Part shown: positions 698 to 44,054 of the stretch, piece by piece
How the letters are laid out: each line of letters starts with the position of its first letter
How positions within the stretch are numbered: the first letter of the stretch is position 1
From: an uncultured Planctomycetaceae bacterium
GTDB taxonomy: Bacteria > Planctomycetota > Planctomycetia > Planctomycetales > Planctomycetaceae
DNA length: 64,000 nt
Assembly (NCBI GenBank): GCA_963813715.1
Contig: CAWFAK010000012.1
Location: 192,001 to 256,000, forward strand
Direction: 5' to 3'
Made by a program: the position numbers and the translations under genes
Notes under the pieces: generated by a model
Databases searched by the model: none
What the model saw: only the letters and a program-made list of their open reading frames with translations
Told to the model about the DNA's origin: nothing

Positions 698-924
698 CAG
701 CGCCATCGGGCGGAGACAATGGCCGAACGACTCGTGTCGCGTGACCCGAACCGAGTCGGGCAAATTTCCCGAGTTGTTTACACGCGCATAGAAACGCGGG
801 GTTCGCGAGCCGCGGCTGGCGTGTTAGCTTGGCGGATGCTCTTCCAGAGGCGATCGCTCGGGATCCGTCTGGATCCAGGCCCAGGTCCCCAGGGTGACAC
901 GGACGGCCGTCGCTGCTGGGGAGA

Positions 925-1680
925 GGGATCCCCGGCGGGGATCCTTTTTCGTACCCGGCGGGGTGGGGATCCTTTTTTCACACAGGGCGAGAAACAGATC
1001 CCCCGGCGGCGCGGCGATCCGAGGGACCGTCGAAGTCCGGTCCGTACACTTTGGCGAACAGGGGTCCGGGTCCAGAGTGCTCTGCCAAACGCGACGGGAC
1101 TCGATCGGCCGAGGGACCTTCGCCCGTTACGTGCTCTTGGGGCTAGGTATTTTCACGGGGGGTTGGGTCACAATTTTTTACTCTATAGGCGACCCACGAA
1201 TTTGGTGACCCACCGCCGATCGGGGGCGGGACGGGACACGTTCGATCGAGTCCAATGTCGAAGATCAGATGCTCGCAATCCTGACTTTGGACCTTTGACC
1301 ACGGGACTTTGGACCGACCACGGGACGGGACACGTTGTTTCACCGAGAAATCCCGGGAGATTTTGGCCCCTCGCTCCGGCTCGAGAGGCGGCGAGCGTGG
1401 GGGGAAGATTGGGGCGTCGGGTGGAAAGAGGTTGGCCGGTGGATCGGTGGGTCGGGACACTTTGTTTCACTAGGTAGTTGACCCAGCGAAGTAGCTGACC
1501 TCCCGTCGCCGGTTTGCGAGGCGGACATTGGGACGGGATCGGGACGGGACACGTTGTTCTATCGAGAAAAGTTCGAAGAATGCGGCCGGCGGAAAGAGAT
1601 TGGCCGGTGGGTCGGGACACCGTTTTCAATTAGGAAGTGACTCGCAGAATGGGTGGACCCGGTCTGGGACGGGACCGGGC
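925..1680 (-). repeat. Mosaic intergenic element, copy A (diverged core about 925-1225 plus GGGACGGGACAC motif array)
   Basis: GGGACGGGACAC / GGGTCGGGACAC-type motifs at about 1229, 1322, 1450, 1529-1550, 1608, 1665; blocks are reverse complements of 17551-17730 and 43590-43700; CGGCGGGGTGGGGATCCTTTTTTCACA is shared with 18770-18796 and 43920-43945. Confidence 0.85.
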
Positions 1681-17323: not shown

Positions 17324-17474
17324 GAGTGACAGCGGGAGGTAGCCCGAGACTTCTCGCCTCAGGCCGCGAACCTCCAATCCCAAAAAGAGATTCGCAAAAA
17401 ATTTCCGGTGGCGTGCTCGGTTCGAGGGTCCGAGCAAATGCTGCCGGAAATTTTTTGCGCACCGCGCAGTCACG

Positions 17475-18909
17475 GGCCAGGCGAGCCGACTGCGTTAGCT
17501 GTCGGGTGCTTCGGCATCCTCCCGAGAGTTTTCTCCGGCCTTTTCCCGGTGAAACAACTTGTCCCGTCCCGATCCCGTCCCAATGGTCCCGCGGAATGGC
17601 GACCGGGGTGGGTCAACTACTTCGCTGGGTCAACTACCCAGTGAAACAAAGTGTCCCGACCCACCGGCCAACCTCTTTCCACTCCCGATATTCTTCGAAC
17701 TTCTCTCGATGAAACAACGTGTCCCATCCCGTTCTTCTCCAGCCCCAACGGGGCGCGACAGCTATAGCCTGGGTCGGAGCGCAGCGCAGGCCCAGGATCC
17801 CGAGATCCCAATCCACATCCAATCGTCCCCCCTCCCCCCGTATCAGTCCGCGCCGGCACTTACCGCCGAAGCGGCGGACGCCGACAAGCCGGAGAGGGGC
17901 CGGGCGTGAGGGGGCTTTCGCACAACTGGACCAGGCTGAGGGAAGATTTCTCCGGGCTTTTCTCGGTAGAACAACGTGTCCCGTCCCGACTGAACCGAAT
18001 CCGGATGTCTAACCACCAAGCCACCAAGCACCAAGCACCAAGGGGACGCTAAGCTCAGCGGACTTTGCCTGCCTTGGTGATCTTGGTGGCTTGGTGGTTC
18101 AAATCCGTCCCTGATTGATCGTTGGGACCGGATCGCGAACTATCCCGTCCCACCGGCCAATGCCTTTCCACCCTTCCTCCTCACTCTTCCCCCAACGCGC
18201 CCGGCCCTGGCGGGCCGACTGCGTCAGCTGTCGGGTGCTTCGGTCTTCCCGAGAGTTTCTCCGGGCTTTTCTGCGTAAAACAACTTGTCCCGTCCCGCTC
18301 GGAGGGGAGTCTTTCACCACAAAGACACTAAGGCACGAGTAAAGCCTACTCAGGTAATCCCGACTCAGCGGATCGGATTTCTTGGTGTCCTTGGTGTCTT
18401 TGTGGTGACAAATCTTCGGTCTTGTCCCGCGTGTCCCGTCCCGCTGGTCTGAATCAATCCCGTCCCAACGTGTCCTGGGCCCACTTCGGCGGTTTGCCCC
18501 GGTGAAACAACGAGTCCCGTCCCGCGTCCCGAGCCGGCGGCAGAACGAAAGGCACCGGCTTACTGCGTGCGCGGCTCCCTAAGAGGGTCCCGATTGCCGG
18601 GCCGGATCGCCACTCAACGGATCGACACTGACCGGTGGGACTCTCGTCGGTGGGTCCACACCCCTTATATCAATTGTGAGAGACCCGTCCCGGCGGGACC
18701 ACTTTAGGCGGACCCGGCGGGTCAACGTGTCCCGGCGCGCCGGGGATCTTTTGCTCCCTCGATCCTCTATGTGAAAAAAGGATCCCCACCCCGCCGGGGG
18801 ATCCTTTTTCGTCCTCGCGGGGCGCCCTCCACGCGCACAAAACCGCTCGCGCCGAGATCCGCTCTCTCCATTCAGCCACAAAACCGAGATTCGTCCAAGA
18901 TCAGTTTCC
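17475..18909 (+). repeat. Mosaic intergenic element, copy B (motif array 17475-18535 plus core 18587-18909)
   Basis: (GT)GAAACAACxTGTCCCGTCCC-type motifs at about 17549, 17641, 17710, 17966, 18276, 18502; palindromic doublets between them; core nearly identical to 43738-44054. Confidence 0.9.
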
Positions 18910-19083
18910 TCCGAATCCTCGCTAAGAACCTGGGGAGGTGTTTGATCCCTCTCCCATTCAGATGGGAGAAGCAGTGCCCTCGTCACCATTCCCTCCCTCC
19001 CTCCCTCCCTCGCCTGGAGGATTCGGGCGTATTGCAGCACGGGCTTGGCACGCCGTAATCTGGCAGGATATTCGAGGTTTTGC

Positions 19084-21680
19084 ATGGAAGATCCCAGCCG
19101 TCCCGCGAGCGAGCTGCCACCGTCACCGGCCGCAACGGTGATCGGTAATGATCCGTCTCAGCTAATCGGGGCCGTCATTGGGCCCTACAAGCTCATCGAG
19201 CAAATCGGACAAGGAGGATTTGGCCTCGTTTTCGTTGCCGAGCAGCAGAAGCCTGTCAAACGCCGGGTGGCCCTCAAGGTCATCAAACCGGGGATGGACA
19301 CGCATGACGTGATCAAGCGCTTCGAGGCCGAACGGCAAGCGCTGGCTCTCATGGACCATCCCAACATTGCGCGGGTCCTCGATGCCGGCGCGACAGCTTC
19401 GGGTCGACCGTATTTTGTGATGGAGCTGGTCCACGGCATCCCCATCACGGATTACTGCGACAAGAATCGATTGACCTTGCGCCAGCGCCTCGAGCTGTTC
19501 GTATCCGTTTGCCAGGCCGTTCAGCACGCCCACCAGAAAGGGATCATTCACCGCGACATCAAACCGTCGAACGTGCTGGTGACGGTGCACGATCGTCGGC
19601 CGCTGGTGAAAGTGATCGACTTCGGCGTCGCCAAAGCGCTCCATCAACCGCTGACCGACAAGACGATTTACACGCGTTTTGCGCAGATGGTGGGCACGCC
19701 GCTCTACATGAGCCCCGAGCAGGCGGAGATGACCGGCCTCGACATCGACACGCGCAGCGACATCTATTCGCTGGGGGTGCTCTTGTACGAGCTTTTAACG
19801 GGGACCACCCCATTTGACAGGAAGCGACTGTCGCAGGTCGCCTACGACGAGCTGATCCGCATTATTCGCGACGAAGAACCACCTCGGCCGAGCACGCGGC
19901 TTTCTCGATCGACAGAAACGCTCTCCGCTGTCGCAGCGCACGCAGGACCGAACCGGCGCGGCTCTCGAGGATGTTCCGCGGAGACCTCGACTGGATCACG
20001 ATGAAGGCGCTCGAGAAGGATCGCACGCGGCGCTACGAGACAGCCAATGGTCTGGCGCGAGACGTCGAGCGCGTACTTGCGCGAGGAGCCGGTGGAAGCA
20101 GGTCCGCCTGGAGCCCGCTATCGACTGAGAAAACTGGCCCGGAAGCACCGAACGGCCCTAGGTGTGGTCGGGCTATTTGTGGCGCTCCTGTTAATCTCAG
20201 TCGGCGTGAGCACCTGGCAAGCGGTTCGCGCGAGGAGGGCCGAACGGGAAGCCGTGGCGGAGCGCGACCGAGCTGAGGCTAGCTTCAAGATGGCCCGCGA
20301 TACGGTGGACCGCTTCTTCACTCAAGTCGCTGAAAGCCCAAAGCTCAAGGCGCAGGGGATGGAGAGATTCCGGAGGGACCTGCTTGCCAACGCCAAGGAC
20401 TTTTATGAGCGTTCTATCAAGGAGCAGCTCGATGCGGCAGAGGTGCGCGAGGATCTGGGGCTGGCCCATATTCGGCTGGCCAAGATTCACCAGGTGCTCG
20501 GAGAGTATGCAACGGCACAGGCTCTGTCGGAGAAGGCCATCGAGCTCTTAAGCGAGCTGGCGCGGCGCATCCGGAGGTCGCCGACTATCAGCGCGATTTG
20601 GCTGCCAGTCAATTTGAGCTGGGCTCTGTCTATTTCGACACCGGCAACTTGGACAAGGAGGCTGCCGCGTATCAGCAGGCGCTGCCCATTCAGGTAAAAT
20701 TGTGTAACGACCATCCGGAAGTGGCGGAGTATCGTCGTGCTCTGGCGACCACCCAAGACGCTTTAGGATACTTGGATCTCCGTGCCCGGCGCCTGGAAGG
20801 AGCTCAGGCTAGCCTGGAACAGGCCTTGGTGACGTGGTCCGAACTCGCGAGTGACAGCTCACATCTCCCTGAAGACAGGTATGGGCTTGCGAGGGTGCAA
20901 CAACGGCTCGGCGGGACGTATGGACGGCGGGGCCAGACGGAGAAGTCGGAAGCAAGACTGAAGGAAGCAGCGAGCACGTATCAAGGTTTGGTTCGTGACT
21001 ACCCCGACGTCCCTGAGTACCGTCATTCCCTTGCCAGTACCTACACGGAACTGGGTGCTCTTTATATCAACAATACGCGGCAACTCCAAAATGCGGACGC
21101 AGCTCATCAGAAAGCACTGCAAATTCTTGAGAAGCTGGCTGAGGAGCATCCGGATGTGTTGGAATTTACTTACGACGTGGGTCATTGCTACCACAACCTC
21201 GCGGTGGGCGAGCGGCTACAGGGCCGCTCGGACGCTGCGCTGGCCAGTCTCGACAAGGCAATCAGGATCCTGGAGCATGTCGTTAACAGGGGCTATGGTC
21301 GTGCCCGATCGGATCTCCTCAACGGACGGATTTTGCACGCCTCCGTGCTGACTGTCCGGGGCGCCCACGCGCAGGCGATTGATGAAGTCACTGAGTTAGC
21401 CAGGCAGAACGGTTTAAGCGCGGCCAACTTGTACAACATCGGCTGCGTCTTTGCCCTATCATCGGCCGCTGCCGAGAACGACACGAAACTTTCTGCCGCA
21501 GATCGAACCAGGGTAAAATCGCAATATGCCGACCGTGCCATGGAGTTTTTGCACAAGGCGGTTGCCAAAGGCTTTCAAAACGCTGCCGAGCTGAAAAGCG
21601 ATCCGGACTTTGCTCCGCTACGCTCGCGCGAGGACTTTCAAAAGCTGCTGCGAGAGGTGGAGCAGAAGAACAAGAACTAG
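19084..21680 (+). CDS. Serine/threonine protein kinase with C-terminal TPR repeats (frameshifts near 19945, 20070, 20565)
   Basis: [47 protein letters not shown] tail ending YNIGC…[17 protein letters not shown]; spread over several reading frames. Confidence 0.9.
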
Positions 21681-21740
21681 GGTCCCTCGGGTTTCGCAGA
21701 ATCACCGAAACGTGGGTACTGAACGCTGTTCGATGCAGCG

Positions 21741-21970
21741 GGTGGCATGCCCCACGGCTTGGCTTGGGCAACTCTTGCTGCAGTTCGCATGCTCACGCGG
21801 ACGTCGTGAGGCTGTCCGAGAATTCGGTGGGATCTCCGAGCCCTTTCTCACGCTTCGGGCTGTGGTGTCGCGTGCATGAACCCGACGGGTCTGACGCCGC
21901 GGATTGACTCCACAGGAACAAAGCGGACCTTCGAGGACGTGCGGTCCCCAAGCGGAGCTCGCGACCGAGG
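21741..21970 (+). repeat. Composite REP-like repeat, copy 1
   Basis: GGCATGCCCCACGGCT…GGGCA…CTCACGCTTCGGG…GTGTCGCGTGCATGAACCCGACG…GGTCCCCAAGCGGAGCT; matches 22422-22640, 42333-42495 and 44064-44145. Confidence 0.85.
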
Positions 21971-22107
21971 AAATTTGGTTAATGGATCACTAGTTCTGAT
22001 GCATCTAGCTTGGGGTCGAAGCCGGCGTACTTCCTTTGCTCGGAGCGAGCGATTAATTTCAGCATCACCAGAATCTACCCTGGCCAACTGGACTTACGAG
22101 AGCCGCC

Positions 22108-43356: not shown

Positions 43357-44054
43357 CGTCCCCGACCCACCGGCCAACCTCTTTCCACCTCCGAATTCCC
43401 CGGCGTTTTTCCTCGGTGAAGACAACGTGTCCCGTCCCGCATCTTCGCCCCTCGCCAGACCCAGGCGAGCCGATCCGCCGCGGCGGATCAGCTGTCGGGT
43501 GCTTCGGCATCTCCCCCCGCTCTTCCCCCTCGCCCGTCCGCTTCGGATGGGAGAGAGTCGGGGTGAGGGGCAATTACTCGGGCGTTTCCCGGTGAAACAA
43601 CGTGTCCCGTCCCAGCGTCAGTCCAAAGCCCCGCGGTCCAAAGTCCAAAGTCAGGATTGCGAGCCGCTGAATTCTCGACTTTGGACTTTGGACCTTGGAC
43701 TCTTTGAATCGGTCCCGTCCCGTTCCAAATCAATCCCGTCCCGATTGCCGGGCCGGATCGCCACTCAACGGATCGACACTGACCGGTGGGACTCTCGTCG
43801 GTGGGTCCACCCCCCTTATATCAATTGTGAGAGTCCCGTCCCGGCGGGACCACTTCTGGCGGACCCGGCGGGTCAACTTGTCCCGTGCGCGGGGATCTTT
43901 TTCTCCCCCTATCCTCTGTGTGAAAAAAGGATCCCCACCCCGCCGGGGATCCTTTTTCGTCCCCGCGGGCGCCATCCGCGCACCAAACCGCTCGCGCCGA
44001 GATCCGCTCTCTCCATTCAGCCACAAAACCGAGATTCGTCCAAGATCAGTTTCC
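43357..44054 (+). repeat. Mosaic intergenic element, copy C (array 43357-43737 plus core 43738-44054)
   Basis: ACAACGTGTCCCGTCCC at about 43421 and 43596; heptamer doublet GTCCAAA…TTTGGAC as in copy A; core matches 18587-18909. Confidence 0.9.

Follow-up and report, generated by a model that had tools for sequence, protein, structure and literature searches.

Helitrons and the IS91/ISCR elements are polar, lack terminal repeats and target duplications, capture flanking DNA and leave non-autonomous mosaics behind, and sedentary integrons form fixed chromosomal platforms with a promoter-like end, a content that turns over and neighbouring genes that are swapped. The Rep proteins of pathogenicity islands found in Staphylococcus aureus (SaPIs) are self-loading superfamily 3 (SF3) or MCM-type helicases with a primase, encoded in an integrase-bearing island, whose winged helix binds the iterons of an origin lying right after the gene (PMC9371898). 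Bacterial interspersed mosaic elements (BIMEs) are built from inverted pairs of repetitive extragenic palindromes (REPs) of one system (PMC3333891, PMC3733652). Here we describe polar non-coding arrays in a 64,000-nucleotide (nt) stretch of an uncultured Planctomycetaceae bacterium (contig CAWFAK010000012.1, positions 192,001 to 256,000; hereafter the window) and their relation to a helicase-like gene at other loci of the same genome (G000; G002, G003 and G038 are genomes of relatives, and L-numbers denote sampled gene loci). The arrays combine the start region of this gene with origin-like blocks that come from several lineages of it and with hairpins belonging to other small mobile genes. 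On balance, we favor the view that they are gene-less derivatives of the helicase-like gene, which is mobile and multi-copy in soil planctomycetes, and that they are probably reshuffled and spread by local DNA copying or unwinding plus recombination and not by a transposase.

Three loci in the window carry such arrays, copy A (925-1680, minus strand), copy B (17475-18909, plus strand) and copy C (43357-44054, plus strand), and all of them, with their recurrent motif, are present where an original prediction made from the letters of the window had placed them. It had proposed six or more motif variants in copy B, of which we find six (starts 17549, 17641, 17709, 17966, 18275 and 18502), with three in copy A (minus strand) and two in copy C. 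The three copies it counted are a small part of the real number, as G000 holds 114 arrays (92 kb in total, 1.2% of the genome), 63 matches to the end of copies B and C (E<1e-3) and 130 matches to the motif (at most four mismatches) in 63 clusters, none of which is of mixed strand. The 10-mer core occurs 363 times in G000 versus 8-130 times for 30 permuted words. The predicted polar layout extends genome-wide, with 113 of the 114 arrays confined to one strand, but their functional direction is opposite to the one first given. A shared core is found in copies B and C (332 nt at 94%) but only one of its blocks in copy A, which finishes in a different sequence (764-808) and not in the terminal sequence ascribed to all three. 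Two named blocks do stand in reversed order in copies A and B, an order equally expected from circular permutation of a two-unit repeat. The motif spacing (68-309 nt) is, as predicted, too irregular for a CRISPR array, and an Rfam search of the arrays gave no match, in keeping with the earlier failure to recognize a described family.

Four independent soil runs yielded short-read contigs with the modules and with stretches of locus B, and such arrays are also present in relatives assembled from short reads, indicating that they are not a long-read artefact. Searches of the full genome and of other Planctomycetota gave further copies in G000 and in the genus, locus B being matched in 10 of 11 other genus members and, beyond the genus, by short hairpin pieces only. 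The exact pattern of motif plus end had no match in viral contigs. Array orientation relative to local GC skew is split 63 against 51 with no clear bias and so lends no support to targeting of the lagging strand.

When the neighbors of the arrays were clustered, one family apart from insertion sequence (IS) elements overlapped them, a stand-alone gene encoding an AAA_25 domain (RepA/DnaB fold) and a MarR-like winged helix only, with no HUH domain, found in G000 at 11 loci plus one remnant. Open reading frames (ORFs) between paired motif clusters, also considered as the partner gene, proved to be inserted IS4-, IS110- and IS481-type transposases. Read on the gene strand, the two array ends (T1 and T2) correspond to sequence upstream of helicase genes, and the motif and core blocks to the 3′ ends of the genes. 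The matches to post-gene blocks found in copies B and C are at 78-87%, and those of the motif to gene 3′ ends at 84-97%; 20 shuffles gave one hit. Among 110 gene-less arrays, 86 have at least one gene-type block and 48 have two or more types (random pieces, 1 of 500); 197 of 199 block matches in these arrays are in gene sense, and blocks from up to four lineages occur side by side. The helicase-like gene at other loci supports the predicted non-autonomous element with a partner enzyme encoded elsewhere; the likely partner is no recombinase or transposase but this gene, whose start region and 3′ blocks make up the "core" and the motif.

The predicted fold of the protein (mean predicted local distance difference test score of 77) is RecA-like and near DnaB, RSF1010 RepA, RadA and RecA/Rad51, and the positions of the Walker A lysine, the catalytic glutamate and Walker B are common to the gene and its primase-fused relatives; by these features it would be a superfamily 4 (SF4)/RepA-type motor. 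Sequence searches of the PDB gave weak matches to the winged helix only. Distant relatives bear a primase or a DnaB-like domain at the N terminus, and directly after their genes iterons surround an AT-rich centre. The primase is confined to relatives at ∼37-39% identity, and Pfam and PHROG scans found none in the helicase genes or their neighbors; the gene has lost the primase of its relatives. The short-class blocks retain the full two-armed origin layout. In the short-class genes L087, L093, L045 and L117-L119, one or two DUF559-type hairpins lie within or just before the N-terminal coding region, at the position where relatives have the primase. Next to the 11 genes in G000 lie 23 ORFs, each a host gene, an unknown or an IS transposase. 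A single distant viral relative was found.

On the gene strand, copy B runs from T1 through origin-like blocks of types 5 and 4 into motif copies that alternate with hairpins, as follows (positions in the window).
18861..18918, minus strand: end T1, homologous to a region ∼200 nt upstream of helicase genes
18739..18822, minus strand: origin-like block type 5, in which inverted iterons surround an AT-rich centre, matching the L117 block, which sits right after the winged helix of the L117 gene, at 78% over 86 nt
18661..18740, minus strand: origin-like block type 4, 82% over 80 nt to the L127 post-gene block and 79% to L040 (G000)
18500..18531, minus strand: motif copy 6, 94% to L036/L141, equal to the 3′-end iteron-pair block of long-class helicase genes
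18302..18418, no strand: hairpin resembling those flanking GxxExxY genes
18267..18298, minus strand: motif copy 5, by motif match
18202..18246, no strand: REP of the type flanking the REP-associated tyrosine transposase (RAYT) gene G000:C7:398553
18010..18105, no strand: GxxExxY-flank-type hairpin, 89-93% to flanks in L228, L229 and L231
17958..17988, minus strand: motif copy 4, by motif match
17846..17920, no strand: DUF559-flank-type hairpin arm plus a segment occurring upstream of helicase gene L118
17736..17799, no strand: REP, 86% over 64 nt to the type flanking RAYT gene G000:C12:190957
17701..17731, minus strand: motif copy 3, 94% to L036/L141
17608..17662, minus strand: origin-like block type 1, with the layout of the other blocks, closing with motif copy 2
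17541..17582, minus strand: motif copy 1, with homology to the G002 ortholog stopping at most 10 nt away
17470..17513, no strand: REP of the RAYT C7:398553 type

Copies A and C are composed of the following parts.
764..808, plus strand: copy A, end T2, homologous to a helicase-gene upstream region, 87-90% to L112 and L134
928..1003, plus strand: copy A, origin-like block type 5
1025..1060, plus strand: copy A, iteron block of the L038/L039/L100 gene clade
1160..1214, plus strand: copy A, type 2 origin-like block, without a significant match among the sampled genes
1283..1350, plus strand: copy A, four-helix-bundle-type hairpin arm, then a motif copy
1449..1570, plus strand: copy A, type 1 block together with two motif copies; the array continues to ∼1680, where it adjoins the smc stop codon
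43408..43443, minus strand: copy C, motif
43461..43569, no strand: copy C, REP (type of 17477-17523 in copy B) and DUF559-type hairpin
43585..43711, minus strand: copy C, motif and four-helix-bundle-type hairpin
43810..43969, minus strand: copy C, origin-like blocks types 4 and 5, 87% to L127 and 79% to L117
44006..44065, minus strand: copy C, end (T1)

T1 has a profile match upstream of the gene in L061 (E 0.005) and, with its promoter-like spacing and degenerate extended -10 box, is a putative promoter; a sigma-70 scan did not call it as one. A reading of this end as a rolling-circle nick site was dropped once the end mapped upstream of helicase genes. The palindromic modules of the original prediction are present, and are now read as hairpins that flank small mobile genes of four known families: spacers match the flanks of two G000 RAYT genes and of DUF559 genes, and further spacers those of GxxExxY and four-helix-bundle genes in the genus. 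G000 has hairpins of one family for which no gene was found in that genome. IS110, IS4-type and IS481-type elements are inserted in many arrays. Multi-copy IS110 and IS4-type elements lie in arrays at G000:C16:392283-395384, C5:1086889-1089859 and C8:67998-70599, the IS4-type element abuts the motif directly and nested insertions are common. One array, 88% identical to a portion of copy B, has its core split by a large serine recombinase gene (G000:C17:4638-5949).

The arrays and their gene resemble the SaPIs and phage-inducible chromosomal islands (PICIs) in having a helicase whose C-terminal domain is a winged helix and, immediately after it, facing iterons across an AT-rich centre (a likeness of layout, with binding predicted) and an iteron type tied to protein lineage. 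They differ in that the protein is a RecA-fold AAA_25 protein with neither primase nor integrase, standing alone between host genes in many copies, and in that gene-less origin arrays are about ten times more numerous than genes; no integrase, att site or phage-interference gene was found among the 23 ORFs neighboring the G000 genes. Like REPs, BIMEs and the REP-doublet (REPIN)-RAYT systems (PMC3333891, PMC3733652), the arrays are intergenic palindrome mosaics, strain-variable and IS-attracting, and include true REPs of the class flanking RAYT genes in G000. Unlike BIMEs and REPINs, whose units pair inverted REPs of a single system over short linkers, they are strictly polar, alternate hairpins of four unrelated gene families with origin-like blocks, and are organized by these blocks and a promoter-like end from the helicase gene. 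The terminal inverted repeats and target-site duplications of IS elements and miniature inverted-repeat transposable elements (MITEs) were seen neither at copy B nor around six recent gene copies in G003, and the partner gene, encoding AAA_25 and MarR-like domains only, is not a cognate transposase. Polarity, the lack of visible terminal repeats and target duplications, the capture of flanking DNA and non-autonomous mosaics resemble Helitrons and IS91, but the partner protein has no HUH domain, so that any HUH activity would need to come in trans from a RAYT, and the boundaries of gene copies vary on both sides. As in sedentary integrons, the arrays are fixed platforms with a promoter-like end at which content and neighboring genes are exchanged; they differ in that their modules are non-coding and that no integrase or attC-like site was seen, and no recurring recombinase was found among clustered array neighbors or beside the genes (no genome-wide IntI search was made). 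The parts are known, and their assembly falls outside satellites, IS/MITE, REPIN/BIME and Helitron/IS91 by the criteria of these classes. No description of an element made of a helicase gene and gene-less arrays was found in the literature, for the most part open-access titles and the opening lines of abstracts.

The helicase-like gene moves to new sites. G003 carries six copies, 91-96% identical, at unrelated sites, with differing REPs as borders and variable edges, and short empty sites (108-195 nt) exist in G000 for three of the 18 gene loci tested. Six other genomes have close family members, and it is precisely these six that match the arrays most strongly; arrays are nearly absent from genus members that have REP-type hairpins without the gene. 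The gene, in its ATPase, is under purifying selection, the ratio of nonsynonymous to synonymous substitution rates (dN/dS) being 0.009-0.17 among the closest pairs with a median of 0.24 over 470 pairs (40 of 54 loci used), and between short-class clades the winged helix diverges far faster than the ATPase. The family is patchily distributed, occurring in nine of 301 genomes of the phylum in a search that scored four candidates per genome and so yields no copy counts. G038, from another family, shows an independent expansion of a primase-less AAA_25 winged-helix gene (L215-L227), in which eight of 13 loci are primase-less copies, 84-90% identical, that start at a consensus-like sigma-70 promoter and have REP mosaics on both sides; a GxxExxY-like gene comes after L222. 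The flanks of helicase copies L089 and L090 are joined differently in G002 versus G000 (C9, C10, C13), pointing to chromosome rearrangement between copies.

Comparison of G002 with G000 at loci B and C bears out the gain, loss and exchange of modules at the motif or right beside it. At locus C, G002 retains both flanks, the first motif and the core, with a different hairpin between the motif copies. At locus B, homology extends up to the first motif, where a different gene replaces 17581-22045 of the window, a gene-scale swap that begins at the motif; the replaced interval comprises the array and Ser/Thr kinase and tetratricopeptide repeat (TPR) open frames (split over several ORFs), and the gene in G002 is unrelated. 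The orthologous sites behind smc carry arrays of different content in four of five relatives and none in one. Flanks and breakpoints were compared with G000 for 20 of the 24 ends found in G002: three are collinear, five occupy the same place with a different insert length, three join flanks that lie apart in G000, eight share the array-side flank only and one the other flank only. Breakpoints lie at the motif, as the original prediction of recombination there would have it, but also within hairpins.

If the arrays are gene-less derivatives of the mobile gene, the winged helix would bind the iterons, as the SaPI Rep does at the origin directly after its gene, and the RecA-fold motor would melt the block and unwind it one way, which would explain the strict polarity of the arrays. 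Without a primase of its own, the protein may use host priming or leave single-stranded DNA. The copy could be joined at another site via REP hairpins or iterons common to both, either through host recombination or through a RAYT that nicks and transfers strands; in vitro, BIMEs are cleaved and recombined by TnpA-REP (PMC3333891). With each event the array would gain or exchange a local hairpin or a neighboring origin, and deletion of the gene between start region and origin would leave arrays that remain substrates in trans. A more far-reaching proposal, which we advance tentatively and would not expect to hold in full, is that of a new class of bacterial mobile element with a self-loading helicase as its only enzyme. 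It would be a phage replication module reduced to its helicase, which fires its own mini-origin to home into REP-type hairpins, relies in trans on the RAYT nucleases of the host (a two-part Helitron) and swaps winged-helix/origin pairs for new specificities. The multi-origin arrays that it leaves, about a hundred, would be hot spots at which genes are exchanged and the chromosome is rearranged, and there would have been at least two expansions in the Planctomycetia.

Several observations weigh against deriving the arrays from the gene. Five of the 11 G000 helicase genes are readable in one frame and the rest are frameshifted, possibly through sequencing error; block types 1 and 2 have no matched gene among the loci sampled; the -10 box of gene-less T1 is degenerate; and the fold fits a helicase and a strand-exchange protein alike. 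On the supporting side, gene clades track block type (15 changes on the protein tree versus 26.3 when shuffled, matched in none of 200 shuffles), but near-copies inflate this clustering, which comes from a quick tree with labels from patterns of our own definition and nine of 54 rows unlabelled. RAYT genes, a search for which beside array copies was among the checks suggested with the original prediction, adjoin eight of 54 helicase-gene loci versus 0.3% of random windows, several of the eight being related sites, and for four of the eight RAYTs of G000 an array or gene is no more than 2 kb away, versus 7.6% of all predicted genes; mobile elements gather in intergenic hot spots anyway, and the proximity is perhaps passive. 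Counting against it as well, array positions are mostly common to G000 and G002, suggesting that gene-less arrays mainly turn over in place. In three RNA runs the contig depth profile is the same as in the DNA run, making these runs uninformative on array expression.

The same protein could be a site-directed strand-exchange or branch-migration enzyme (RecA/RadA-like), tethered to the blocks by its winged helix and driving gene conversion between arrays and REP sites. RecA, Rad51 and RadA ranking with DnaB and RepA in the fold search, the missing primase, turnover in place and the exchange of flanks between loci would all suit such an enzyme, but its sequence relatives are primase-helicases with classic origins and the two-armed layout is intact in short-class blocks, and we consider this role unlikely. 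Similarly doubtful is a passive origin of the arrays as BIME-like mosaics, in which relic origins accumulate together with REP hairpins, RAYTs and host RecA shuffle them, and the helicase gene is a mere passenger. The match of REP modules to the flanks of G000's own RAYTs, the many breakpoints in hairpins and the collection of IS110, IS4-type and IS481-type elements in arrays are consistent with it, yet it leaves unexplained the strict polarity (113 of 114), the blocks of many clades within one array, selection on recently spread gene copies, and the near absence of arrays where REP-type hairpins occur without the gene.

A dedicated site-specific recombinase acting at the motif in integron-like fashion, the idea of the original prediction, would account for swaps at loci B and C that finish at or beside the motif, and two of seven resolvase-family loci lie within 750 nt of an array. 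We regard it as highly improbable, since the motif, which is non-palindromic, belongs to the helicase gene as its 3′ end, neither the array neighbors nor the surroundings of the 11 G000 genes show a recurring recombinase, and the C17 serine recombinase breaks an array core as an inserted element would. The least probable account is a decoy or sensor set kept by the host, whose assembled origins and hairpins would titrate helicases, RAYTs and nucleases brought in by mobile elements. It would give a purpose to blocks of up to four lineages adjoining hairpins of four gene families, and to hairpins in G000 of a family whose gene was not found there, but ∼100 dispersed loci and mobile intact genes suit selfish spread better, and the viral side offers one distant relative and, in viral contigs, no match to the exact motif and end pattern.

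If derivation from the mobile gene is correct, a gene that multiplies in the chromosome without a transposase, integrase or nuclease of its own would represent a new route of DNA mobility and offer a driver for the construction and reshuffling of REP/BIME-like mosaics. It would also tie four poorly understood hairpin-flanked gene families to one platform. The ∼100 candidate extra origins in a single bacterial chromosome would be unexpected, and the natural series of winged-helix/origin pairs would be a ready set for studying a protein-DNA code.

A second array subfamily consists of tandem ∼210-nt units, shares its end type with the first and has iterons matching the L038/L039 gene clade (G000:C5:658200-658655, C17:329900-330309, C8:490111-490600 and others). 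Upstream of copy B, a separate hairpin with 16-nt perfect arms (17382-17460 of the window) is conserved in each of five relatives that were compared, even in the one that lacks an array, and is possibly a terminator or a small RNA.
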